Virus genome (UHGV): UHGV-0180691
Source: a virus
DNA length: 40,865 nucleotides
Direction: 5' to 3' (one strand)
This document shows positions 5,778 to 18,263 of this stretch, piece by piece (the first letter of the stretch is position 1; each line of letters starts with the position of its first letter). The position numbers and the translations under genes were made by a program. A model generated the notes under the pieces. The model saw nothing but the letters and a program-made list of their open reading frames with translations. It made no database searches and had not been told where the DNA came from.

Positions 5778-6473
5778 TTATCCGTGCCGTTTAACTGACT
5801 GCGACTGGCTGATCATTACCTTGCCGAAAACGTAAAATCTGTCTTCATTGGACTTATCCACTGACCACTCCCGATATTTAGGGTTATCGGAAATGACAAG
5901 AATTTTATCTGGGATCATCTGTAATCTTTTGACGTAAATTTTATCATCAAAACCAAAGACATAAATCCCATCACCATCAAACTCATTAATCGAAATATCA
6001 ACGAATATCAAATCACCTGGTTCAATGGTATCAGCCATGCTGTCACCACGAACGTTAATCACTTTGACCGTATCTGGTGTTCTCCCACCAAATAATGCGG
6101 CGGCTCTTTCGTTGTTGTACTCAATGGACCTGATGACATCGACGACATCACTACCTTGTATATGGCCCATGCCAGCACTGGCGCTGACATCGAGCAACTC
6201 GACTCTAAACACAGGGTCACCCTCTCCATAAGCTGGATTTTTACCACTGGATTTACATACAGTATTTTCATTTGGAGATGGTGTAAAGAGTTCTGCCACG
6301 CTGACACCAAGTGCCGTAGCATATTTGCTAAGCGATTGTTCAGTAAATGACTTTTGTTTTCCAGTCTCAACCCGTGAGACGTTCGCACCGTCAATACCTA
6401 CAGCTTCAGCAAGATCTGAAATTTTCATGCCCTTTTCGAGGCGTAATTCTCTAATGCGGTTTCCTATGTTCAT
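5778..6473 (-). CDS. cI: CI-like prophage repressor (N-terminal HTH, C-terminal LexA/S24-like autopeptidase domain)
   Basis: 231 aa; N-terminal HTH (IRELRLEKGMKISDLAEAVGIDGANVSRVETG); C-terminal domain with GDSM and VKRL context typical of S24 Ser/Lys dyad; divergent from cro-like gene. Confidence 0.9.
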   Translation of the reverse strand: MNIGNRIRELRLEKGMKISDLAEAVGIDGANVSRVETGKQKSFTEQSLSKYATALGVSVAELFTPSPNENTVCKSSGKNPAYGEGDPVFRVELLDVSASAGMGHIQGSDVVDVIRSIEYNNERAAALFGGRTPDTVKVINVRGDSMADTIEPGDLIFVDISINEFDGDGIYVFGFDDKIYVKRLQMIPDKILVISDNPKYREWSVDKSNEDRFYVFGKVMISQSQSVKRHG

Positions 6474-7716: not shown

Positions 7717-8571
7717 ATGAGCACTAAATTAACGGGTTACGTTTGGGACGCTTGTGCCGCTTCTGGCATGAAGCTGTCCAGCGTTGCCATCATGGCGCGT
7801 CTGGCAGACTTCAGCAGTGATGAAGGGGTTAGCTGGCCTTCCATCGCTACCATCGCGCGCCAGATTGGTGCCGGTGAGAGCACGGTTCGCACAGCCATAT
7901 CTCAACTGGAAAAAGACGGGTGGTTAACCCGCCAGCAGCGCCGTAAAGGCAACCGCAATGCATCGAACGTTTACCAGCTCAATGTTGCGAAATTACAGGC
8001 TGCTGCTTTTTCTCACCTGTCAGATTCTGACGCATCAAATTCTGATGCCTCAAAAACCGACGCGTCAAAATCTGAGGCATCAAAAAACGATGAAAAAGGC
8101 GGTTTTCACCCGTCAGAATCTGGGGGGGATCCGTCAGTAAATACAACTACTGATCCATCAGTTAAAAAACCTTTTTGTCCGGTTGCGCCGCAACCAGACC
8201 CTGAAGTGATGATTACCGATAACGCCATCCTGGTTCTGAATCATCTGAACCTGGTTAGCGGCTCACGATACCAAAAATCAAAAACTTCTCTGGAAAACAT
8301 CCGTGCTCGCTTGCGCGAAGGTTACACCGTTGGTGACTTACAACTGGTGATTGACCTTAAGCATGAGCACTGGAACGGCAATGACGTGCAGTACCAGTAC
8401 ATGCGCCCTGAAACGCTATTTGGCCCGAAAAAGTTCGAGGGTTATCTGCAAAGCGGGATCCGTTGGGACAAGAAGGGGCGTCCACCACGTGAAAGCTGGG
8501 GTGAAAAGAAACACGATCCGATGAAGTTCGGTCCGGTTGATACCAAGATTCCAGAGGGGTTCAGAGGATGA
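7717..8571 (+). CDS. replication initiation protein (O-like, N-terminal winged-HTH; conserved phage C-terminal domain)
   Basis: 284 aa; position after cro/cII; internal low-complexity linker encoded by direct repeats (iteron-like) as in lambda O; RBS AAAGGA upstream. Confidence 0.65.
   Translation: MSTKLTGYVWDACAASGMKLSSVAIMARLADFSSDEGVSWPSIATIARQIGAGESTVRTAISQLEKDGWLTRQQRRKGNRNASNVYQLNVAKLQAAAFSHLSDSDASNSDASKTDASKSEASKNDEKGGFHPSESGGDPSVNTTTDPSVKKPFCPVAPQPDPEVMITDNAILVLNHLNLVSGSRYQKSKTSLENIRARLREGYTVGDLQLVIDLKHEHWNGNDVQYQYMRPETLFGPKKFEGYLQSGIRWDKKGRPPRESWGEKKHDPMKFGPVDTKIPEGFRG
8026..8088. repeat. four direct repeats with 15-bp periodicity (core GAYGCNTCAAAA), iteron-like, inside the replication gene
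   Basis: Cores start at 8029, 8044, 8059, 8074; followed by an A-rich stretch; encode the SDASNSDASKTDASKSEASKND linker. Confidence 0.5.
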
Positions 8572-9455
8572 CGGAAAATAAATACTGCCGCGCACTGGCT
8601 GAACTCCGTTCAAAACCAGCGCATGAATTGAAAGAAGTTGGCGATCAGTGGCGAACTCCAGATCTACTTTTTTGGGGCATCAATTCGATATTTGGCCCGA
8701 TGGCTCTGGATCTGTTTGCAGATGATAGCAATGCAAAATGCCCTGCATGGTATACCGCCGAAGATAACGCGTTGACGCAGGACTGGTCAGAACGTCTGGC
8801 AGAACTCGGTGGCGCCGCGTTTGCTAACCCGCCATACAGCCGTTCTCAGTACCATGAAAAGCAGGCCATCACTGGCATGACTCACATCATGAATCACACA
8901 ATGGCTATGCGTGATAAAGGTGGTCGTTACATATACCTCGTGAAGTCAGCCACAAGTGAAACATGGTGGCCGGAGGATGCCGATCACATCATGTTTATTC
9001 GTGGTCGTATTGGGTTTGATCTTCCTGTTTGGTTTGTTCCCGCTGACGAGAGGCAGCAACCCACCAGCGCATTTTTTGCCGGGGCAATAGCTGTTTTCGA
9101 CAAAACCTGGCGTGGTGAAAGCTTCAGCTATATCAATCGCACCGAACTGGAAGAAAAAGGGCGTGCAGCATTGTCATTGGCTCAATTCGCCGCGGCAAAA
9201 ATGGCCCTTCCTTCGGTGCCGGAAAAAGCAATGCCTACTCCAATTGCAACACCTGATGCAGAGTCGCGCATCTGGCCTCTTGAGGTTGGACTGGTGTTTA
9301 ACCAAATTGAAGGGGCTGACGCTCTACCTGTTTCACAGCAGAACAAGCTGAAAGCCAATATCAACCAGCTGTGGCTCGAACGTATGCCTACGAGTGAAAT
9401 TATCACGACCGCTGGTGGTCTCTTCAACAGCATGCAGGGGGCCGTCAATGCGTGA
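8568..9455 (+). CDS. DNA N6-adenine methyltransferase (phage Dam-like)
   Basis: 295 aa; motifs DLFADDSN and FANPPYS (NPPY catalytic motif); stop overlaps start of the next methyltransferase gene. Confidence 0.7.
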   Translation: MTENKYCRALAELRSKPAHELKEVGDQWRTPDLLFWGINSIFGPMALDLFADDSNAKCPAWYTAEDNALTQDWSERLAELGGAAFANPPYSRSQYHEKQAITGMTHIMNHTMAMRDKGGRYIYLVKSATSETWWPEDADHIMFIRGRIGFDLPVWFVPADERQQPTSAFFAGAIAVFDKTWRGESFSYINRTELEEKGRAALSLAQFAAAKMALPSVPEKAMPTPIATPDAESRIWPLEVGLVFNQIEGADALPVSQQNKLKANINQLWLERMPTSEIITTAGGLFNSMQGAVNA

Positions 9456-11385
9456 AATCATCGTTGATAACTTTGCCGGTGGTGGCGGCGCGAGTACCGG
9501 CATTGAACTGGCCATCGGGCGTAGCGTGGATATCGCTATCAACCACGACGAAAACGCTATTGCGATGCATAAGACGAATCACCCAGACACGCTGCATTAT
9601 TGCGAGTCGGTGTTTGACGTTGACCCAAGCGCAGCCACCAGCGGTAAACCTGTCGGCCTGGCCTGGTTTAGCCCTGACTGCCGCCACTTTTCCAAAGCGA
9701 AGGGCGCTAAGCCAGTTAAGAAAGAGATTCGCGGGCTGGCGTGGATTGTTCTGCGCTGGGCGCTGGCAGTACGTCCCCGAGTCATGATGCTGGAGAACGT
9801 CGAAGAATTTAAGACATGGGGCCCGCTGCTGGATGAAGAATTACGCCCGGATCCTGAGCGTGCTGGTGAAACATTCGAGGCATTTGTCGGCATGCTGTCG
9901 ACTGGTATCGCTGCGAATCACCCAGCACTGGCTGAGGTTTGCGAATTTCTTGCCATTGAGCCGCACGGCAAGCAGGCGCAACAGCTGATCGCCGGGCTTG
10001 GCTATGAGGTCGATTATCGTGAACTGCGCGCTTGTGACTATGGCGCGCCGACGATCAGAAAGCGTTTCTTCATGGTCATGCGTTGTGACGGCCGCAAGAT
10101 TCATTGGCCTGAAGCGACTCATGGGGATCCAAAATCACTGGAAGTACAAAGCGGCAAGCTGGCGCCATGGCGTACCGCGGCGGAGTGCATTGACTGGAAT
10201 ATCCCGGCCCGGTCCATCTTCGACCGCAAAAAGCCGCTGGCGGAAAATACGCTCAAACGTATCGCGCGCGGCATCCAGCGTTTCGTTATCGAGAGTGCTT
10301 CGCCGTTTATCGTTAAGTGCAACCACACCACGTCACACGGCAAATATGATTGTTTCCGTGGGCAGGAGCTCGAGGCTCCATTACAAACCATCACGAAAAC
10401 CCACGGCTATGCGCTGGCGGTACCGCATCTTACTAAATTCCGCACCGGGGCCACCGGGCAGCCAGTGACCGAGCCGGTTCCAACTGTCACCGCTGGTACG
10501 TCGGCGCGCCCGGGCGGGAATGGACATGCGCTTGGCGTAGTTGAGGCCGCCCTGACACCGTTCCTGGCTGGCAATGGCGGCAGTGAGTACCAGGCAAAGC
10601 CGCGCCCGCTGGATAAACCCGCTCATACAATCCTCAAGCAGTCCCACGCGTGCGTGGTTGCGCCGGTCATCGCCCGCCAGTTTGGCGCCAGTGTTGGGCA
10701 CAGGGCTGACGAACCGAGCGCGACGATTACTGCAGGTGGTGGCGGTAAGTCGCAGCTGGTAACTCCAACATTGATCCAGATGGGGTACGGCGAACGCCCA
10801 GGACAAGAACCGCGTGTTCTTCAACTGAATAACCCGCTCGGCACGGTCACTGCTGGTGGTAATAAGTTTGCAACGGTGAGCGCGTTCCTGGCGAAGCACT
10901 ATGGTGGGAATTACACGGGGCCGGGTGTTGGTATGGATGAGCCTGCCCATTCAGTCACTACTGTTGATCATCACGCGGTAGTTGCGTCGCACCTGGTGAA
11001 GCTGCGCGGAACCTGCCGCGACGGTCAGACCATGGATACACCTATGCCGACGATTACCGCTGGTGGCCAGCATGTTGGCGAGGTCCGGACATTCCTCGAA
11101 ACATACTGCGGTGATAGCGAGGATGAATGGCTGGTGACGATCGAGGGGGTTAAGTACCAGATCGTCGATATCGGAATGCGCATGCTGCAACCGCATGAGC
11201 TTTATAAGGCGCAGGGCTTCCCTGACGGCTACGTTATCGATCAGGACTATCGCGGCAATCGTTACGCCAAAGACAAGCAGGTAGCGCGCTGCGGTAACGC
11301 AGTACCGCCGCCGTTCGCTCGTGCTCTGGTAGAAGCAAATCTTCCTGAATTATGTGCAAATCAAAAGGCGGGTGCAGCCGCCTGA
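9448..11385 (+). CDS. DNA cytosine-5 methyltransferase with extended repeat-containing variable region
   Basis: Start at ATG 9448 (MREIIVDNFAGGGGASTG = motif I); SPDCRHFS (catalytic Cys motif IV), MLENVEEF (ENV motif VI), C-terminal LQGFP and GNAVPPPFARAL (motifs IX/X); about 360-aa region between motifs VIII and IX with repeated T(V/I)TAGG modules. Confidence 0.85.
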   Translation: MREIIVDNFAGGGGASTGIELAIGRSVDIAINHDENAIAMHKTNHPDTLHYCESVFDVDPSAATSGKPVGLAWFSPDCRHFSKAKGAKPVKKEIRGLAWIVLRWALAVRPRVMMLENVEEFKTWGPLLDEELRPDPERAGETFEAFVGMLSTGIAANHPALAEVCEFLAIEPHGKQAQQLIAGLGYEVDYRELRACDYGAPTIRKRFFMVMRCDGRKIHWPEATHGDPKSLEVQSGKLAPWRTAAECIDWNIPARSIFDRKKPLAENTLKRIARGIQRFVIESASPFIVKCNHTTSHGKYDCFRGQELEAPLQTITKTHGYALAVPHLTKFRTGATGQPVTEPVPTVTAGTSARPGGNGHALGVVEAALTPFLAGNGGSEYQAKPRPLDKPAHTILKQSHACVVAPVIARQFGASVGHRADEPSATITAGGGGKSQLVTPTLIQMGYGERPGQEPRVLQLNNPLGTVTAGGNKFATVSAFLAKHYGGNYTGPGVGMDEPAHSVTTVDHHAVVASHLVKLRGTCRDGQTMDTPMPTITAGGQHVGEVRTFLETYCGDSEDEWLVTIEGVKYQIVDIGMRMLQPHELYKAQGFPDGYVIDQDYRGNRYAKDKQVARCGNAVPPPFARALVEANLPELCANQKAGAAA

Positions 11386-11399
11386 TATGGAGAAATAGC

Positions 11400-12092
11400 A
11401 TGAATCAGTTAACCGCAAAGGGTGTTGTGACAATGTCCAGCCGTGAAATTGCCAGGCTGGTGCAGAGCAAACATGGTGATGTGAAGCGCTCAGCTGAGCG
11501 CCTTGCATCTGCTGGTATTTTAACCGCGCCGTTGGCGCACACCCCCTACACACACCCGCAAAACGGGCAAACCTACGAGGAGTATTGGTTCAACAAACGT
11601 GATTCTCTGGTGATCGTCGCCAGGCTGTCGCCAGAATTTACCGCCGCTGTTGTCGATCGCTGGCAAGAGCTGGAGAACAGCCAGGCCGTAAGTGTCCCGC
11701 AAACATTGCCGGAGGCATTACGTCTCGCCGCGGATCTGGCCGAGCAGAAAGAACAACTCAGCCAGCAGTTAGCCGCTGCCGCGCCGAAAATTGAGTTTGT
11801 CGATCGGTATTGTACTGCCAAAGGCTCAATGTCTTTCCGCCAGGTGGCAAAGCTGTTGCAGGCCAAAGAGACCGATTTCCGCTTGTTCCTCATTGAGAGC
11901 GACATTATGTACCGGCTCGGCGGAGTGCTGACACCGCGGCACCAGCACATTGCTGCCGGGCGGTTTGAAGTGAAAACTGGCACCACGAGCGAAACAAACT
12001 ACGCCTTTAGCCAGGCACGTTTTACACCCAAAGGCATCGAGTGGATCGGCGGCCTGTGGACGGCACACATCGCTAAGGGGCATGCCGCGTGA
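11400..12092 (+). CDS. Rha/antirepressor family protein (N-terminal Rha-like, C-terminal Ant-like domain)
   Basis: ATG at 11400 with GGAG upstream; N-terminal MSSREIARLVQSKHGDVKR pattern typical of Rha family; assignment from memory. Confidence 0.6.
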   Translation: MNQLTAKGVVTMSSREIARLVQSKHGDVKRSAERLASAGILTAPLAHTPYTHPQNGQTYEEYWFNKRDSLVIVARLSPEFTAAVVDRWQELENSQAVSVPQTLPEALRLAADLAEQKEQLSQQLAAAAPKIEFVDRYCTAKGSMSFRQVAKLLQAKETDFRLFLIESDIMYRLGGVLTPRHQHIAAGRFEVKTGTTSETNYAFSQARFTPKGIEWIGGLWTAHIAKGHAA

Positions 12093-13150
12093 GAGGACTG
12101 TTTACAGCCGAGACTGTTCCTCGCCTTGGCCTAGTGGTGTTAAAGCCGGGCAGCGAACTGATGTCTCTGTTTCAACAGGGGCGTGTGCTGGTGGAGCCTC
12201 AGCCAAAAAGCATGGCTGGGCTTCCGTCGGGCCTCGTCCCTGATGCCAGGCAGCCGCTGGCAGAAGATAAGTCCCTCGAGGAATTCTTCACCGACGAGAG
12301 AGTAATCCGTGCAGCTGGCGGTTTGACCGCGTTGGAATCCTGGTTAGAACGTAACGTGAAGGAATGCCAGTACCCGCACACTGATTATCACCATCATGAG
12401 CTGGTAACGATGCGACACCCCCCTGGATCAATGTTGCTCTGTTGGCATTGCGATAACCAGCTGCGCGATCAAACCACCGCGGCGCTGGCAGAACTGGCCC
12501 GGCGTAATCTCATTAACTGGCTGATCAGTTCCATCCTGTCATCGCTTGGCTATAACAACGAGCGTGAATTATCCCTCGGTGAATTGTGCTGGTGGGCCGT
12601 CTATTCAGGCATTGCTGTTGCAATCACGGAAAGGATGGCCCAGCGTGCGCTTCGATTACCGGACGAGTCGTTTTTATCCGTATATCGAGAAAGTGACATT
12701 GTGCCGATGCCCCCCGCTAAAAGCATTTTGCAGAAGAAGGTCACCCCTGCGGTCACGGCTGCGAAATTAAAGCATGGAGCAAATCAGGAAGTGGCCTATG
12801 ACCAGCCAAAGGTTCTGGCTCTGCATGCGGATCCTGAATCCCCTGAATCATTCATGTTGCGCCCAAAACACCGCAGGTGGATGAATGAGGACTATACCCG
12901 GTGGGTTAAAACCCAGCCCTGTGAAGGTTGCCGGCGGCCAGCGGATGATCCACACCATGTCATTGGTCACGGCATGGGCGGTACCGCCACTAAAGCCCAC
13001 GATTTGTTCGTGATCCCTCTGTGCAGAGAGTGTCACGACAAATTACATGCTGATGTTGCAGCGTTCGAGAAAAAACACGGTACCCAGCTGGAGCTGCTAT
13101 TCCGGTTTATGAATCGAGCGCTGGCGATCGGCGTAATAACAAAAGCGTAA
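12089..13150 (+). CDS. DUF968-type phage protein (YdfU-like) with C-terminal Cys/His HNH-like motif
   Basis: 353 aa; GTG start with AAGGGG RBS; C-terminal CEGCRRPADDPHHVIGHG...CRECHDKLH. Confidence 0.55.
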   Translation: MRGLFTAETVPRLGLVVLKPGSELMSLFQQGRVLVEPQPKSMAGLPSGLVPDARQPLAEDKSLEEFFTDERVIRAAGGLTALESWLERNVKECQYPHTDYHHHELVTMRHPPGSMLLCWHCDNQLRDQTTAALAELARRNLINWLISSILSSLGYNNERELSLGELCWWAVYSGIAVAITERMAQRALRLPDESFLSVYRESDIVPMPPAKSILQKKVTPAVTAAKLKHGANQEVAYDQPKVLALHADPESPESFMLRPKHRRWMNEDYTRWVKTQPCEGCRRPADDPHHVIGHGMGGTATKAHDLFVIPLCRECHDKLHADVAAFEKKHGTQLELLFRFMNRALAIGVITKA

Positions 13151-13171: not shown

Positions 13172-13864
13172 ATGAATTTACAAGAACTGGAATATACGCG
13201 GATTGAACTGCGCCGCGCGCTGGCGGATTTATCAGGATCGACAAAAGGACAGCTGCAGGCGTTCAGTGAGCATCCACCAGCAGATAAGAATAAATACCCT
13301 CGGCACCATCCTGAAATCGTCATGGAGGGTGGGGAAGGTTGTGGATCGAAGGTTGTAAAAACTCTGGCCACTCCGCTTTATGTTCTTGAGACAAGGAGCC
13401 GTCGCCGACCTTTACCGCCTATTAAGGATACGGAGTTCGCTTGTTCAGCATGGCGTCGATCGGTCAATGGTCTGGGGGCGCATTTGCAGGCATGGGTGCG
13501 GTACTGCTATGGGCATGACCTTGCTTTCCGGTACCAGAGGTTAATGTGCCAGCACGTATGGGAAGAGTTTCAGCGTCAGCATAGCGGCAAAAAAATCCAA
13601 GACCGTGTCACTAAAAAACTGGTAGGGCTTGTCTGGCTGGCGGCGCAAGAAGTTGCTGCCTCGCGTAATAACGATACCTATCAGGAGTATGCTGGAGCAG
13701 CTCTGGCGCGCATGGTCAGCGTTGAGCGTTCCACCTGGCTCAGAGTGTATTCAGGCCACTGGGCAGCTTTCAAAGCGTCGTTTTCGGAGATGGACAGCCA
13801 GGCACTAAGCGAAATTTTGACACGGTACGAAGAGTACCAAGAACTGAAAGTGGCGGAAATGTGA
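13172..13864 (+). CDS. putative late-gene antiterminator (Q-like)
   Basis: ATG at 13172 with GGAG upstream; immediately upstream of a strong intrinsic terminator and the lysis cassette, the canonical Q position; sequence family not verified. Confidence 0.5.
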   Translation: MNLQELEYTRIELRRALADLSGSTKGQLQAFSEHPPADKNKYPRHHPEIVMEGGEGCGSKVVKTLATPLYVLETRSRRRPLPPIKDTEFACSAWRRSVNGLGAHLQAWVRYCYGHDLAFRYQRLMCQHVWEEFQRQHSGKKIQDRVTKKLVGLVWLAAQEVAASRNNDTYQEYAGAALARMVSVERSTWLRVYSGHWAAFKASFSEMDSQALSEILTRYEEYQELKVAEM

Positions 13865-13957
13865 GGTAACTTTCACTAACTCCCTCAATTAGGCTTGCAA
13901 AATGCAACAAAATAAGCGATATTTGAAGCTAATTTGATATATTGCCAAAAGTTTATA

Positions 13958-13982
13958 AACCCGCCAGCGAGCGGGTTTTTTA
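13958..13982 (+). terminator. rho-independent terminator (tR'-like) downstream of Q-like gene
   Basis: Stem CCCGC / GCGGG with loop CAGCGA followed by T6. Confidence 0.7.
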
Positions 13983-14003
13983 TTAGATGTTTTTTAAGGA
14001 ATC

Positions 14004-14291
14004 TTAAGGGAAAACACTACTCCATTGGAATTGAGCTCCTGCATCGAAGATTGTTAGCTCTGCGACATCTCTTGGTGTTCTCTTAGCTTTAAATGCTGGG
14101 CTATTTTCGTAAAAGCACTTCATGTTTTTCATATAGCGGTATAACACATCGCCAGAAGCATCATAAATAATAAATGAATCAATATTATGTGTATTAGTCT
14201 TTGATTCATTCGGGTCGATGTAACAAACAATGTTTCTTATAGCTTGGCGCACTTGCGCGATACTCTGAAATGACACAACTAGTACCTCCAA
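14004..14291 (-). CDS. doubtful hypothetical ORF in AT-rich spacer
   Basis: 95 aa but TTG start and weak RBS; internal ATG lacks an RBS; listed only because it is the sole ORF in a roughly 690-bp AT-rich interval. Confidence 0.15.
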   Translation of the reverse strand: MEVLVVSFQSIAQVRQAIRNIVCYIDPNESKTNTHNIDSFIIYDASGDVLYRYMKNMKCFYENSPAFKAKRTPRDVAELTIFDAGAQFQWSSVFP

Positions 14292-14550
14292 TTTCTTATG
14301 AATACTCTTTATATATCGTCTAGATGCATGTTTTCTTTATGCCAGGTCTTTATTTTTATAAATACGGCAAGTTCTAATTAGAAATTGAGCGCTTCCAGAT
14401 AGGGAGCATTTATTTGTGGAAATGGGCGGCTGGTGGGTGTTGTAGCACCCAACCAGCCATTAGCTCATGCTTTCAGGTCACAAGCTAACCAAGGCCCATT
14501 GCTTTAGCGCAAAAGCATAGTGAGCCTATCAGAGTTACGCTTACGGATCT

Positions 14551-15603
14551 ATGAAAAATACTGTAAATATAAACAGTGTTGAGCTTATCAACGCTGACTG
14601 CCTGCAATACCTAGCAACCCTCCCAGATAACACCATCGACCTTATTGTTACGGATCCGCCTTATTTTAAGGTGAAGCCGAACGGCTGGGATAATCAGTGG
14701 AACGGTGACGCCGACTATCTTCGCTGGCTTGATATGTGTCTTGCCCAGTTCTGGCGAGTGCTTAAGCCTGCCGGCAGCCTGTATTTGTTTTCAGGTCACC
14801 GACTTGCATCCGATATTGAGATCATGATGCGTGAACGCTTCAACGTCATGAACCACATTATCTGGGCGAAGCCATCAGGGCGCTGGAACGGGTGTAATAA
14901 AGAAAGCCTGCGCTCTTACTTTCCCGCGACGGAACGCATCCTTTTCGCTGAGCATTATCAGGGGCCATATAAGCCGAAAAGCGACGGGTTTGCTGAGAAA
15001 AGCAACGAGGTCAAACAGCACGTCATGGCTCCGTTAATCACCTACTTTCGGGATGCACGAGCCGAACTGGGGGTCACGTCCAGGCAAATAGCTGACGCCA
15101 CCGGAAAGAAAAATATGGTGTCTCACTGGTTCGGTGCCAGTCAGTGGCAACTACCGAACGAGCAGGATTACGAAAAGCTGCAGGAATTGTTCACTCAGAT
15201 CGCCATTGAGAAGCACCGCGCCTCAGAACTCAAAGCACCGCATCACCAGCTGGTGGCCACATGGCATTCGTTGAACCGGAAATACCTTGATCTGCTGGAA
15301 GAGTACAAATCTCTTCGGCGGCATTTCTCTGTGACAGTAGCCGTGCCCTATACAGACGTCTGGACACATAAACCCGTCCAGTTCTATCCAGGCAAACACC
15401 CGTGCGAAAAGCCCGCTGATATGTTGCGGCAAATCATCAACGCCAGCAGCAGGCCCGGCGATGTGGTAGCTGATTTCTTTATGGGCTCGGGATCAACTGT
15501 TAAAGCAGCCATTGAACTGGGCCGCCAGGCTATCGGCGTAGAACTGGAAGAGGAACGTTTCAACCAGACGGTAAGTGAGGTGAGGCAGCTGGCAGGGGAA
15601 TAA
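14551..15603 (+). CDS. DNA methyltransferase, N6-adenine/N4-cytosine class (beta-type, DPPY motif)
   Basis: 350 aa; VTDPPYF (motif IV) near N-terminus and FFMGSGST (motif I, AdoMet binding) near C-terminus, the order typical of beta-class amino-methyltransferases. Confidence 0.8.
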   Translation: MKNTVNINSVELINADCLQYLATLPDNTIDLIVTDPPYFKVKPNGWDNQWNGDADYLRWLDMCLAQFWRVLKPAGSLYLFSGHRLASDIEIMMRERFNVMNHIIWAKPSGRWNGCNKESLRSYFPATERILFAEHYQGPYKPKSDGFAEKSNEVKQHVMAPLITYFRDARAELGVTSRQIADATGKKNMVSHWFGASQWQLPNEQDYEKLQELFTQIAIEKHRASELKAPHHQLVATWHSLNRKYLDLLEEYKSLRRHFSVTVAVPYTDVWTHKPVQFYPGKHPCEKPADMLRQIINASSRPGDVVADFFMGSGSTVKAAIELGRQAIGVELEEERFNQTVSEVRQLAGE

Positions 15604-15673
15604 AAGCTTGGGTCGCTATCGCGGCCCTTTTTATTACCTCAACTGGACACCCGCAACGTAGCGAGGTGAGAGC

Positions 15674-15889
15674 ATGTATCGAATGGAAAAAATCACGACG
15701 GGTATTGCATACGGCGCATCGGGAGGGGGGACCGGATACTGGTTGCTTCAGCTCCTCGATAAAGTCTCCCCATCTCAATGGGCGGCCATTGGTGTGCTCG
15801 GTAGCCTCATGTTTGGTTTGCTGACGTGGTTAACGAGTCTGTACTTCCAAATTAAAGCGGATCGCCGCAAAGCTGCGCGGGGTGAATGA
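15674..15889 (+). CDS. S: class II holin / pinholin (phage 21 S-like), dual-start motif
   Basis: 71 aa, two predicted TM helices, C-terminal RRKAARGE; Met1-x-Arg-Met4 dual start; strong resemblance to phage 21 S pinholin as I recall it. Confidence 0.85.
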
Positions 15890-16425
15890 TGTCGAACAAA
15901 GCAAAGCTCAGCGCAGCAGTGCTGGCGCTAATCGCGTCAGGGGCATCTGCTCCACTCATTTTCGACCAATTCATCAGCGAGAAAGAAGGCAATGCGCTGG
16001 TGGCCGTTGTTGATCCGGGTGGGGTCTGGTCTTTATGTCACGGCGTGACCGTTATCGATGGCAGGCGTGTTGTTAAGGGCATGACAGCCACAGAGGAACA
16101 ATGCCGCAAGGTTAACGCTATTGAACGTGATAAGGCATTAGCCTGGGTGGATCGCAATATCAAAGTGCCTCTGACAGAGCCGCAGAAGGTAGGCATCGCA
16201 TCTTTTTGCCCGTACAACATCGGGCCGGGTAAATGCTTCCCGTCCACGTTCTATAAGCGCATCAATGCTGGTGACCGGAAAGGGGCATGTGAAGCTATTC
16301 GCTGGTGGATTAAAGATGGCGGCCGTGATTGCCGACTAACCAAAGGCCAAAAGAATGGCTGCTATGGGCAGGTCGAGCGGCGCGATCAAGAAAGTGCGCT
16401 GGCGTGCTGGGGGCTGGACCAATGA
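15886..16425 (+). CDS. R: SAR endolysin (T4-lysozyme-like muramidase with N-terminal signal-anchor-release domain)
   Basis: 179 aa; Gly/Ala-rich weakly hydrophobic N-terminus ([19 protein letters not shown]); E...D...T catalytic spacing ([22 protein letters not shown]); overlaps holin stop. Confidence 0.85.
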
Positions 16426-16940
16426 AAATTAATGCAGGTCTTATCGGCGTTATCGTTATTGCTGGCCTTTCGGTCGCTCTCGTTAAGAGTTGCTCAAACG
16501 CCAGTAGCCTGCAGAGCGATAACGACGTTCTGCGAAGTGACAACTCTTTGCAGGGGCAGGTGATCGCTACCCAGGCATTCAACTTTAATCGGTTCTATCA
16601 GGTAGCCGAACATGCCAACAGGCTTAACGCCCTGATAGACACCAGCACCGAAGAAACCGTAATCGAATACCGGGAGATTCTCCGCCGTGAAAAAACCTGT
16701 GATCTGCCTGTTCCTGCTGACATTGCTGGTGGGCTGCTCGAATACGCGTACCGTTTACGTGCCAGCGCCATGCACACCGATACCAACAGACCTGACGCAG
16801 CCGATGATCGTGCCGCTGCCGCCAGCTCAATGACGTACTGCCAGGCTGTTTTGTGGATAAAGCCTCTACTGGCCGTGATTGAGAAGGGCAACAATAATTT
16901 CGCTGGCATAAGGCAGATCGAGCAGGAAAGAAAGAACTAG
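16422..16940 (+). CDS. Rz: i-spanin (Rz-like)
   Basis: ATG at 16422 overlapping endolysin stop; N-terminal TM segment; coiled-coil-rich periplasmic region; contains an embedded lipoprotein ORF in another frame. Confidence 0.7.
   Translation: MKINAGLIGVIVIAGLSVALVKSCSNASSLQSDNDVLRSDNSLQGQVIATQAFNFNRFYQVAEHANRLNALIDTSTEETVIEYREILRREKTCDLPVPADIAGGLLEYAYRLRASAMHTDTNRPDAADDRAAAASSMTYCQAVLWIKPLLAVIEKGNNNFAGIRQIEQERKN
16688..16834 (+). CDS. Rz1: o-spanin (Rz1-like outer-membrane lipoprotein) embedded within Rz in an alternative frame
   Basis: Hand translation from GTG 16688: MKKPVICLFLLTLLVGCSNTRTVYVPAPCTPIPTDLTQPMIVPLPPAQ; lipobox LVGC; proline-rich mature region; GGGAGA about 10 nt upstream; below the 60-aa cutoff of the ORF track. 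Confidence 0.6.
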
Positions 16941-17063
16941 GAATAGCTCGTCCTTGAGCACACGGGTATTTCTGAACGACGGCTTTACCTGACATAGCAA
17001 AGCACCGTTAAATTGTAGAAAAGACTCGATATTTAACAAGCGAAGCGCAGCAATGTAAAAAAA

Positions 17064-17092
17064 AATGCCCTCACATGGAGGGCTACCAGAGT
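17064..17092 (-). terminator. rho-independent terminator on minus strand
   Basis: Plus strand shows A9 then GCCCTC-ACATG-GAGGGC; on the minus strand this is a GC stem followed by U9; lies downstream of the minus-strand gene 17355-17852. Confidence 0.6.
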
Positions 17093-17354
17093 CTCAGTTT
17101 CACTTGCTCTTTTTATGGATGTTTCCCAGGAGTTGGCAAACTACTCATCAGAGTCATAAACAGCCTGGCATCCGGCATGAGATTAACAAGCGTAAGCGGA
17201 AAAAATTAAGATTTTACGTATGCAGAAAGATGGAGGTTAGTTGACAAATTATCTATCGTTACACGACACCGACATTCGAGACCACCAGATGCGGAAAGAC
17301 ATCCTCTCTAAGTCAATTGCTGCCTGAACAAAGTTAAAAGCCAAAGCGCATAAT

Positions 17355-17852
17355 TTAATCACACTCTTGCCGTTGCCGATCTAGAGTGTTAAGTGCCTTC
17401 ATGTAAGCGCTATACGCTCCCTTAAATGTTTGTCCAGCCTGCTCAATTGCCGACTCTTGTAATTCTTGATTATTACCAGCGCTGTCTGCGAGATAAAAGG
17501 CCTTAAGAACGTTCGCCGCAACTAAACCCAGCTCAGGAGGGGCGTAGGTCATTACTTCTGTAGCGCTTTGAACTACGGGTAACATATCTTTTCTCAGGTC
17601 GCCTCTGGTCATTGGGTTGGTCAATGCAGGAGAAAAGCCAAACGAAGTAACTGAAACCATAAATTGATTATATTTTTCTCTCAATAGTGACTCCTGCTTA
17701 TCTAAACGAATAATGCAGGCTGTTTTGGAGGCATTGTGAGTTTGTAAATAGTTTCCATACAATCCCAAAAGCGCAGTAATGCTTACACCAAGTAAGGTAC
17801 AGATTACGGGAAAAATGACATTAAACTGGTTTATCCGTGGGCGACTGCTCAT
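17355..17852 (-). CDS. hypothetical single-pass membrane protein; AT-rich insert between lysis and packaging modules
   Basis: ATG at 17852 preceded by AAGGAG with 8-nt spacer; N-terminal hydrophobic helix (FNVIFPVICTLLGVSITALLGLYG); antisense to the late operon; own downstream terminator; AT-rich by eye. Confidence 0.55.
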   Translation of the reverse strand: MSSRPRINQFNVIFPVICTLLGVSITALLGLYGNYLQTHNASKTACIIRLDKQESLLREKYNQFMVSVTSFGFSPALTNPMTRGDLRKDMLPVVQSATEVMTYAPPELGLVAANVLKAFYLADSAGNNQELQESAIEQAGQTFKGAYSAYMKALNTLDRQRQECD

Positions 17853-18263
17853 GACCAAAGCTCCTTAGTTAACAACTTAATTTTCACTAATTAGTAAGTC
17901 CATATTTGCTTGCCATGATTTTAACATCAAGCTCCAGAACGTGGTTGGTAATCATTTTTAGAGTCTCTTTACTTCCAGATTTGACCGTTTTTGTTAATTA
18001 ATTTCCAGCTGGAGAAATGAGGCTAACCGCCTCGATCAGCAAGGGACCGGCAATACTGGTGTCAAAGCATACACGAGAATGAATCTCATAAGTAAAAGGT
18101 ACTCCTGGCGATTATAAACACCGAGGGGGCGAGGACACGCGGAAAAAGCCAAATTTTTGCATTTTTATCGGCCATCACCACCACTTCAATTCATTGAAAC
18201 ATCGGGATAAAAATTTTTCCGGTGTCGATTCTGTTTGTTTTTTGTTCATCACTGGAGCCATTC

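Follow-up and report, generated by a model that had tools for sequence, protein, structure and literature searches.

What stands between the late antiterminator gene Q and the lysis genes of a lambdoid prophage, and when is it expressed? We addressed this question for the viral genome UHGV-0180691, a stretch of 40,865 nucleotides (hereafter the window) that represents a complete lambdoid prophage, in which a DNA methyltransferase (methylase) gene lies between Q and the holin gene. The initial annotation described this methylase as cargo in a moron slot, preceded by an AT-rich spacer of about 570 bp that might carry a promoter of its own. The layout it gave is correct: a PF01555 methylase does stand between Q, with its tR' terminator, and the holin, it is followed by a hairpin at 15610-15635, and the gap between tR' and the methylase ATG is 568 bp long. 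The interval is best explained, nevertheless, not as a cargo gene after an empty spacer, but as four units: the putative late promoter with its terminator, a variable cassette with a small gene (orf90), a conserved RNA leader, and the methylase itself. We assign a probability of roughly 0.6 to this explanation as a whole, including the late and gated expression of the methylase that is part of it.

The methylase is a conserved first gene of the late operon

The methylase gene (14551-15603, plus strand) encodes a 350-aa beta-class N6-adenine DNA methyltransferase of the M.EcoGII family (PF01555, E 8e-43, 147 bits against a cutoff of 26.7 bits). Its motifs come in the beta-class order, with DPPY near the N-terminus (TDPPYF, residues 34-39) and FxGxG near the C-terminus (FMGSGS, near residue 310), and M.RsrI, M.MboIIA and CcrM are among its relatives in the Protein Data Bank. 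It shares 77% identity and 87% positives with M.EcoGII over 348 of the 350 residues, that is over the full length and including the central recognition domain; the M.EcoGII reference sequence was machine-read from a PDF (supplement to PMC11551740), and a few errors in it are possible. As M.EcoGII is a non-specific adenine methyltransferase of a prophage of E. coli O104:H4 (PMC5778455), the enzyme of the window is probably sequence-non-specific, too. A paper on a prophage rRNA methyltransferase (PMC10810198) was set aside as not relevant, for it deals with another enzyme (MT-A70, DPPW) at another locus.

Genes of this family were found by tblastn in 94 phage records, including N15, PY54, cdtI, phiP27 and 29 Stx2 phages. 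Both in these records and in about 160 loci that we fetched, the late operon repeatedly begins with the methylase. Four annotated records place it after Q and before the lysis genes, and the order Q, variable segment, leader, methylase, then holin or tRNA-stx2, is seen in N15, cdtI, phiP27 and an Stx2a phage. In Stx2a_WGPS2, whose methylase is 93% identical to M.EcoGII and has the same leader, and in phiP27 the gene precedes tRNA genes and stx2AB, and the view that the interval from Q/tR' to the holin is a cargo site thus holds.

That the methylase is the cargo does not hold. Morons, as defined by Juhala et al. (2000), are variably present between similar phages, are atypical in composition, and have their own promoter and terminator. 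A terminator is present here, as an intrinsic-terminator-like hairpin on the plus strand separates the methylase from the holin (15610-15635, GGGTCGCTATCGCGGCCC followed by TTTTT). No promoter was found for the methylase, however, and relatives retain the gene whereas the segment next to it changes; nothing separates the methylase unit from tR' in N15 or in a Symbiopectobacterium prophage (L054). Because its GC content (0.51-0.56) equals that of the phage backbone, we regard the methylase as a conserved first gene of the late operon and not as variable cargo.

A variable cassette with the small gene orf90 is the probable moron

If the methylase is not the cargo, what is? GC content is 0.345-0.38 over about 13800-14400, and about 0.51-0.58 on both flanks. 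The description of the region as an AT-rich spacer is therefore right for 13866 to about 14400, and wrong for the last 136 nt before the methylase (14415-14550), which have 47% GC and form a separate conserved element. Within the AT-rich part, both composition (35-38% GC) and comparison with relatives delimit a variable cassette at 13985-14385. Homology with close relatives stops at 13980-13984, where the terminator ends, and restarts at 14415-14419. The insert of the window was found in just two of 170 loci, at 97% identity, one being an Enterobacter roggenkampii prophage (L004) and the other a short Logan contig from run SRR28285710 (L005). As only these two share it, the real moron slot extends from 13985 to about 14385.

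Other phages carry other DNA at this position: a 192-aa plus-strand ORF (open reading frame) in phage LLS, a 181-aa ORF and more in phage Eeyore, and a 159-aa minus-strand ORF in E. coli ECONIH5. Two minus-strand genes lie between Q and the methylase in Stx2a_WGPS2 and in cdtI. In the Stx2e phage phiP27, the 409-aa gene L22 (L008 1208-2437) matches PD-Lambda-1 (E 2e-89) and has a T5orf172/MUG113 domain as well, so that in at least one phage the interval carries known defence cargo. Empty sites, with the terminator abutting the conserved leader segment, are found in N15 and in L054. We found no tRNA genes, such as those of Stx phages, in the slot of the window.

The cassette of the window holds orf90, a gene for a 90-aa protein on the minus strand (14276-14004), convergent with Q and antisense to late transcription. 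It opens with GTG (14276-14274), 8 nt downstream of a GGAGG (14289-14285), and stops at 14006-14004. A 94%-identical 90-aa protein is annotated by NCBI in the E. roggenkampii prophage, and the two genes differ in 6 synonymous and 5 non-synonymous codons (dN 0.024, dS 0.118); the resulting ratio of non-synonymous to synonymous substitution rates, dN/dS about 0.2, comes from only 11 substitutions and is weak taken alone. Exhaustive HMMER and profile searches assembled a family of 12 clusters, 83-101 aa long and down to 31% identical, with eight invariant residues; the homologs at 31-69% identity keep the length. In all six genomic contexts that we read, the homolog is located directly 3' of Q and convergent with it. 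Five of these have Q of the PF06323 type, one has the lambda-type Q (PF03589), and the genes beyond orf90 vary: methylase in some, HicAB and holin in one, other genes in another. One context without methylase is a Klebsiella aerogenes prophage (L291 3193-3855), in which a HicA/HicB toxin-antitoxin pair stands between the Q-adjacent homolog and the holin, and it indicates that the family is tied to Q and not to the methylase.

One might suspect that such a short ORF is spurious and that the AT-rich segment has decayed or is filler without function. The family is small, the start codon is GTG, consensus scans identified no promoter for orf90, domain and defence-model searches (Pfam, PHROG, PADLOC) gave no match, and a structural search with the AlphaFold model returned no significant neighbour. 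Such a view nevertheless fails to account for diverged homologs of constant length with eight invariant residues, or for the same Q-facing position in six of six contexts that involve two unrelated Q families and differing far neighbours. A strong Shine-Dalgarno (SD) sequence at correct spacing, and the AlphaFold model itself, a small alpha/beta fold that is confident (pLDDT, the predicted local distance difference test score, is 85) from only 13 sequences, also speak against it, and we consider it highly improbable. The initial annotation saw no convincing ORF in the spacer and treated a real protein-coding gene there as incompatible with its model; orf90 is such a gene, on the opposite strand. 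Being variably present and of atypical GC content (0.35-0.38), and having in the shared tR' hairpin a putative terminator, orf90 is probably the actual moron, and a candidate for expression in the lysogen. A distance of 19 nt separates its stop codon from the tR' hairpin, which is positioned to end the convergent orf90 transcript as well and would hence be bidirectional.

Between the cassette and the leader lies a short plus-strand segment (14385-14414) recognised by its likeness to relatives. In 87 of 123 distinct relatives, a small ORF of 63-75 aa with a winged-helix resemblance ends 10-30 nt 5' of the leader (for example L011 2295-2486, L010 2323-2514, L006 3153-3350, L009 2123-2350 and L008 2653-2850). 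Its Pfam matches are weak (DprA_WH, TrmB), and RefSeq at times names it 'TrmB family transcriptional regulator'. The ORF is absent from the window, and because 14385-14414 looks like the final codons of this ORF with their trailing hairpin (here a weak terminator-like hairpin at 14391-14407, with the tail ATTTATTT), the orf90 cassette appears to have replaced the winged-helix gene. Where present, the winged-helix protein might act together with the methylase or its leader, or regulate either of them.

A conserved leader is strictly linked to the methylase

Alignments and a covariance model define the last unit before the methylase as a structured leader of 136 nt (14415-14550, plus strand). 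BLAST detected it in 142 of the 170 methylase-fetched loci, always 134-139 nt long and abutting the ATG. Among 101 distinct loci in which the methylase coding sequence is less than 90% identical to that of the window, the leader is better conserved than the coding sequence in 96, with median identities of 89.7% and 75.6%, respectively; third codon positions there are about 48% identical.

The linkage also appears when one starts from the leader. Covariance model R1 gave one match per locus in 96 of 96 loci (707 kb searched) and one match in the window. When viral contigs were scanned with three short leader motifs only, 121 matches were obtained; the methylase follows in 115 of the 117 with enough downstream sequence, and in 112 of these 115 at the identical distance. 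The two remaining matches (L224, L225) are chance matches in unrelated high-GC phage DNA and have no covariance model match. Complete E. coli genomes contain the leader in 2635 of 5426 cases, with 3759 occurrences, and no annotated feature lies beneath the match in the 12 occurrences listed. Up to 8 copies are present per E. coli genome, with 3 in an O157:H7 strain, and some contigs have two leader-methylase units about 3 kb apart (L242 287-435 and 3272-3420).

No known RNA family accounts for this element. Rfam 15 gave no match at gathering score over the whole window, and with the limit relaxed to E 10 for 13860-14620, the matches (P26 on the minus strand, 20 bits, and Trp_leader over tR') all stayed below threshold. 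AgvB, AsxR and IsrK were likewise absent at gathering score, and otherwise gave weak sub-threshold matches. A possible leader peptide of 17 codons in the methylase frame (ATG at 14467 to TAG at 14520) was rejected, since it contains 1-nt indels, is reduced to ATG-TAG in some members, and has lost its ATG in Providencia and Ewingella.

The leader is predicted to adopt two mutually exclusive folds

In the first fold (state A, a hand-built model), helix P1 (14423-14427 with 14494-14498) closes a three-way junction with the hairpins P2 (14428-14439 with 14446-14458) and P3 (14460-14469 with 14479-14488), and a further hairpin, P4 (14500-14505 with 14512-14517), comes after it. On a MAFFT alignment of 83 distinct sequences, made independently of the model, 92.5% of the cells are paired in state A, as opposed to 31-47% when the partners are slid by 1-3 columns. 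Two-sided changes occupy 84 cells compared to 18.5 in shuffles, and none of 500 shuffles was as high. Compensatory pairs in P2 number 8 of 11 on this alignment and 10 of 11 on the covariance model alignment (A4, 96 distinct sequences); the latter shows compensatory changes in 28 of 32 pairs overall, and its P3 pair 14462-14486, for instance, occurs as CG 40, AU 26, UG 10 and UA 7 times. In a naive all-against-all covariation scan, one-sided G/A and C/U variation prevailed, and nothing emerged beyond the helices already seen.

The second fold (state B) is the minimum free energy structure that RNAfold gives for the sequence of the window (-51.9 kcal/mol, z -3.1). Here 14422-14427 (AUGGGC) pairs with 14463-14468 (GCUCAU), 14492-14498 with 14521-14527 (GCCCA with UGAGC), the 3' strand of P3 (14482-14489) with 14534-14542, that is nucleotides -17 to -9 from the AUG, and 14476-14480 (GGUCA) with 14545-14549 (UGAUC, -6 to -2 from the AUG). 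The helices specific to state B are 91-99% paired across the family. They covary as well: a triple compensatory change from AAG:CUU to GGA:UCC is found in the Providencia clade, and a change from G-C to A-U in P5 in nine sequences. By these predictions, states A and B exclude each other, both are supported by covariation, and the P3 covariation of state A cannot be explained by state B. A GATC (Dam) site at 14545-14548, 2 nt 5' of the ATG, is nearly invariant across the leader family and falls inside the UGAUC that pairs with GGUCA in state B.

Could the element be conserved as DNA rather than as RNA, being an operator for the winged-helix protein or a 'linker' for lambdoid recombination? Its left edge of conservation does coincide with the recombination breakpoint (14415-14419), and the winged-helix ORF does stand 5' of it in the majority of distinct relatives noted above. 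Compensatory changes in nested helices, involving several pair types, would however not be expected of an operator or a linker; the element persists unaltered in the window, N15 and L054, which lack the winged-helix gene, and its strict length of 134-139 nt and fixed distance to the ATG point to a feature of the mRNA. A role as DNA thus seems very unlikely to us.

Another alternative is that the 136-nt element specifies an antisense small RNA on the minus strand, which, like the antitoxin of a type I system, would pair with the methylase start and silence leaky expression in the lysogen. On one hand, a methylase that is harmful when constitutively expressed would suit such a control, the numerous A.C oppositions in P3 and P4 would be G.U pairs in minus-strand RNA, conservation continues through codons 1-10 and, less strongly, up to codon 30, the place expected for an antisense promoter, and P2 read on the minus strand is a GC-rich hairpin followed by GCCCAUUUU. 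On the other hand, no minus-strand sigma-70-like promoter was detected at either threshold in or just after the start of the coding sequence, where TTGATA and TATATT are only 14 nt apart, and with a gap of 4 nt between hairpin and U tract the two would make a poor intrinsic terminator. The G.U pairs of the state-B helices, 91-99% paired, are moreover abundant and confined to the plus strand (94:7, 78:11 and 16:4), and the distance to the ATG is fixed, as expected of a cis-acting leader. We therefore hold an antisense RNA to be unlikely, if somewhat less so than a DNA site.

The reading we prefer, an mRNA leader, is related to translation by three observations: an SD-like triplet is missing from positions -14 to -4 in 78 of 96 leaders, synonymous variation almost disappears in codons 1-10 (normalised entropy 0.17, compared to about 0.77 further along), and there are two exclusive folds. 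The suppression in codons 1-10 indicates that the upstream element extends into the coding sequence. The leader would thus limit or gate translation. The simplest reading is a default-off leader, serving either as a damper on a very strong late transcript or as a switch responding to a trigger. As regards the features of a riboswitch, the covariation data support a conserved multi-helix junction and exclusive helices touching the initiation region. More tentatively, and with well under even odds, the leader may be an undescribed RNA family and a genuine two-state switch, either a riboswitch or factor-responsive, that gates translation of non-specific adenine methyltransferases as first genes of the late operon in thousands of enterobacterial prophages, including on the stx2-bearing transcript of several Stx2 phages. 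State A might then be stabilised by a metabolite (S-adenosylmethionine or S-adenosylhomocysteine would be obvious guesses), by some late factor of the phage, or because the RNA folds while it is being transcribed behind Q-modified polymerase.

Expression of the methylase probably depends on Q

The Q gene (13172-13864, plus strand; PF06323 E 4e-39, PHROG 304 E 3e-71) encodes 230 aa counted from its ATG, the mechanically called ORF opening at TTG 13151; a sequence search gave no relative of known structure for this type of Q. The 120 bp 3' of Q are co-inherited with the Q type, for the segment occurs in 44 loci and this Q in 39. It contains a candidate late promoter pR' on the plus strand (13895-13923, TTGCAA-17 nt-GATATT), which came from a laxer hexamer scan; it matches 8 of 12 hexamer positions and is below the threshold of the standard scan. 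An extended -10-like element, TGaTATATT (13934-13943, plus strand), comes after it; it resembles the promoter-proximal pause signals of lambdoid late promoters and could be a sigma-70 pause site. Next is a tR'-like intrinsic terminator (13957-13985, AAACCCGCCAGCGAGCGGGTTT and a T run, with an 8-bp stem and T6). Of the features of a Q-dependent lambdoid late operon, Q and a terminator are present, and the promoter is a candidate with only an 8/12 match and a -10-like element downstream of it.

No independent promoter was found that could replace this route. The standard scan revealed no sigma-70-like site on the plus strand from Q to the holin, and the laxer one only the candidate pR' and weak hexamer pairs within orf90 (14141-14188); in 14290-14550 neither threshold gave a site. 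The leader-methylase unit is also typically insulated by terminators. Of 104 distinct relatives, 42 have a terminator-like hairpin within 70 nt 5' of the leader and 67 have one within 90 nt 3' of the methylase, the background rate being 54 of 650 random segments, and such insulation fits dependence on antiterminated polymerase.

The model that the initial annotation suggests is a self-contained methylase moron, which would be expressed from a promoter in the AT-rich spacer both in the lysogen and late in infection, for example to modify host DNA or regulate host genes. It is true that promoter-like sequences are frequent in AT-rich DNA, that the weak, sub-threshold hexamer pairs of 14141-14188 lie in the spacer, and that other prophage methylases, such as M.EcoGIII, are active in lysogens (PMC6602927). 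Those hexamer pairs, however, are inside the antisense orf90 and 5' of another terminator-like hairpin, 14290-14550 is devoid of a detected site, the AT-rich segment is missing from nearly all methylase-bearing relatives, and the methylase has the GC content of the backbone. It needs to be mentioned as well that M.EcoGI and M.EcoGII are reported not to be expressed in the lysogen and to give slow-growing, unstable clones when constitutively expressed (PMC5778455), while their homologs appear inactive in O111 methylomes (PMC6602927). The spacer-promoter model is, in our opinion, quite unlikely, though a shade more probable than a DNA site. Given that no spacer promoter was found, the terminator hairpins and the published silence of M.EcoGI/GII, expression of the methylase in the lysogen is unlikely as far as sequence and homologs can tell.

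How might the late, gated expression of our preferred explanation proceed? Q-modified RNA polymerase would read through tR' and the weak hairpin at 14391-14407, this being the sole route to the methylase. The enzyme would then be made late, so that progeny DNA would be methylated before packaging and restriction in the next host blunted. At this stage the leader would limit or gate translation: the three-way junction fold (P1/P2/P3) would leave the start region free, while in the thermodynamically favoured fold the P3 3' strand and GGUCA would pair with the sequence just 5' of the AUG. In this way, a toxic methylase that serves to evade restriction would probably be kept silent by its leader until a late stage of infection.

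Several points weigh against this explanation. The case for Q dependence and for late timing is built on architecture and homologs, the non-specificity of the enzyme rests on 77% identity and could differ, and the scans gave no promoter for orf90. Around a quarter of the fetched methylase loci, mostly from Xenorhabdus, Pantoea and Aeromonas, are without a detectable leader. The leader could be a constitutive damper and not a switch. Covariation is hardly informative for P1 and for several state-B helices, which scarcely vary. The paired percentages are inflated, as alignment A4 had been fitted to state A and the window's own minimum free energy fold had supplied state B, and the shuffle counts should not be read as probabilities, given the shared ancestry of the sequences. 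Finally, the A.C oppositions in P3 and P4 (210 and 29 cells), which would be G.U in minus-strand RNA, leave room for an antisense transcript.

Comparison with known systems

M.EcoGII and M.EcoGI of E. coli O104:H4 C227-11 are among the closest known enzymes (Murray et al. 2018, PMC5778455). They are prophage-borne, 349-350 aa long and of the same architecture (DPPY, recognition domain, FxGxG), with 23% of the residues of M.EcoGII differing from the window methylase; neither an upstream leader nor a late-operon position is described for them in that paper.

A close known layout is the gene 52 region of N15 (AF064539), which has the same order and is annotated with putative promoter signals, a terminator, the gp52 methylase, a terminator and the holin. 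Its methylase is 57% identical to that of the window. From the N15 terminator to the true start of the methylase there are 136 nt, and these are recognised by the leader model (64 bits, E 1.5e-12). N15 differs from the window in being the empty-site form, with no insert between terminator and leader. The annotated start of gp52 (L007 2735) is about 230 nt downstream of the start of the tblastn match (2501), and the annotation thus probably truncates the N-terminus of the methylase, including the DPPY region.

Compared to the lambdoid moron site after pR'/tR' (Juhala et al. 2000), the window has a likewise variable and compositionally foreign insert. Cargo facing against late transcription is also present in Stx2a_WGPS2 and cdtI, and in Stx2a_WGPS2 and phiP27 stx2 lies downstream of the methylase in the same operon. 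The difference is that the cargo here is orf90, not the methylase. AgvB and AsxR (RF02702, RF02703; Tree et al. 2014, PMC4104026) are convergent anti-small RNAs of 51-60 nt located 3' of a moron, and neither has a match in the window.

Two analogies concern the proposed control of translation. The mom gene of phage Mu is a late, harmful, restriction-evading DNA-modification gene, whose start region is held in a stem-loop and is opened for translation by Com. The proposed sequestration of the methylase start would work alike. The chemistry is different, however (adenine modification by Mom versus methylation), there is no sequence similarity, and the window encodes no Com-like zinc finger. A Com-like protein is annotated beside a homologous methylase in Aeromonas phage phiARM81ld. 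A Com-like zinc finger upstream of the methylase was considered and discarded, for the small ORF of the relatives is a weak winged-helix match and not Com, and is absent from the window. The translational riboswitch SAM-III (SMK box) would be similar in having a junction 5' of a SAM-related gene and an alternative pairing that occludes the initiation region. Its fold differs, the leader matches no Rfam riboswitch even at E up to 10, and we do not claim membership.

Other features of the phage

Elsewhere in the window, the prophage has an integrase (720-1883) and a CI-like repressor (5778-6473), both on the minus strand, a CII-like gene, replication genes and a terminase. An Ant-like antirepressor (11352-12092) and a DUF968/HNH protein (12089-13150) precede Q on the plus strand. 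Two further DNA methyltransferases are encoded in the early region, making three methylases in one 40-kb phage: a Dam-family N6-adenine enzyme (8568-9455, PF05869 E 2e-44) and a 663-aa C5-cytosine enzyme (9394-11385, PF00145 E 2e-20).

The lysis cassette (15674-16940, plus strand; PF04971, PF00959, PHROG 214) starts directly 3' of the methylase unit with an S21-type pinholin (15674-15889), and continues with an endolysin (15886-16425) and an Rz-like spanin (16329-16940 for the ORF as mechanically called). The holin frame opens with ATG TAT CGA ATG (M-Y-R-M, 15674-15685), which is a dual start, and the close relative phage LLS has an annotated antiholin/holin pair with a similar dual-start arrangement.

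A second low-GC island (0.36-0.46) is present at 16950-18200, between the spanin and the DUF1441/terminase genes, and contains a 167-aa minus-strand ORF (17355-17858) with no Pfam or PHROG match. As the E. roggenkampii relative has a Ser/Thr kinase and a PP2C phosphatase at the corresponding place, this island looks like another variable cargo slot.

Significance

The arrangement in which Q is followed by an M.EcoGII-type methylase as first late gene is already known from N15, cdtI and Stx2 phages. What is new is, firstly, a family of small orf90 proteins beside Q, facing Q in every context examined, and secondly, a strictly linked and covariation-supported methylase leader RNA that has no Rfam family and, in the occurrences listed, no RefSeq annotation. 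If this leader controls translation, it would explain how phages can safely carry a harmful non-specific methylase, and would offer an experimental handle on the timing of restriction-proof phage DNA methylation. It would also constitute an extra regulatory element on the late transcript 5' of stx2 in some Stx2 phages, and would bear on the heterologous use of M.EcoGII, a widely used chromatin-footprinting enzyme.

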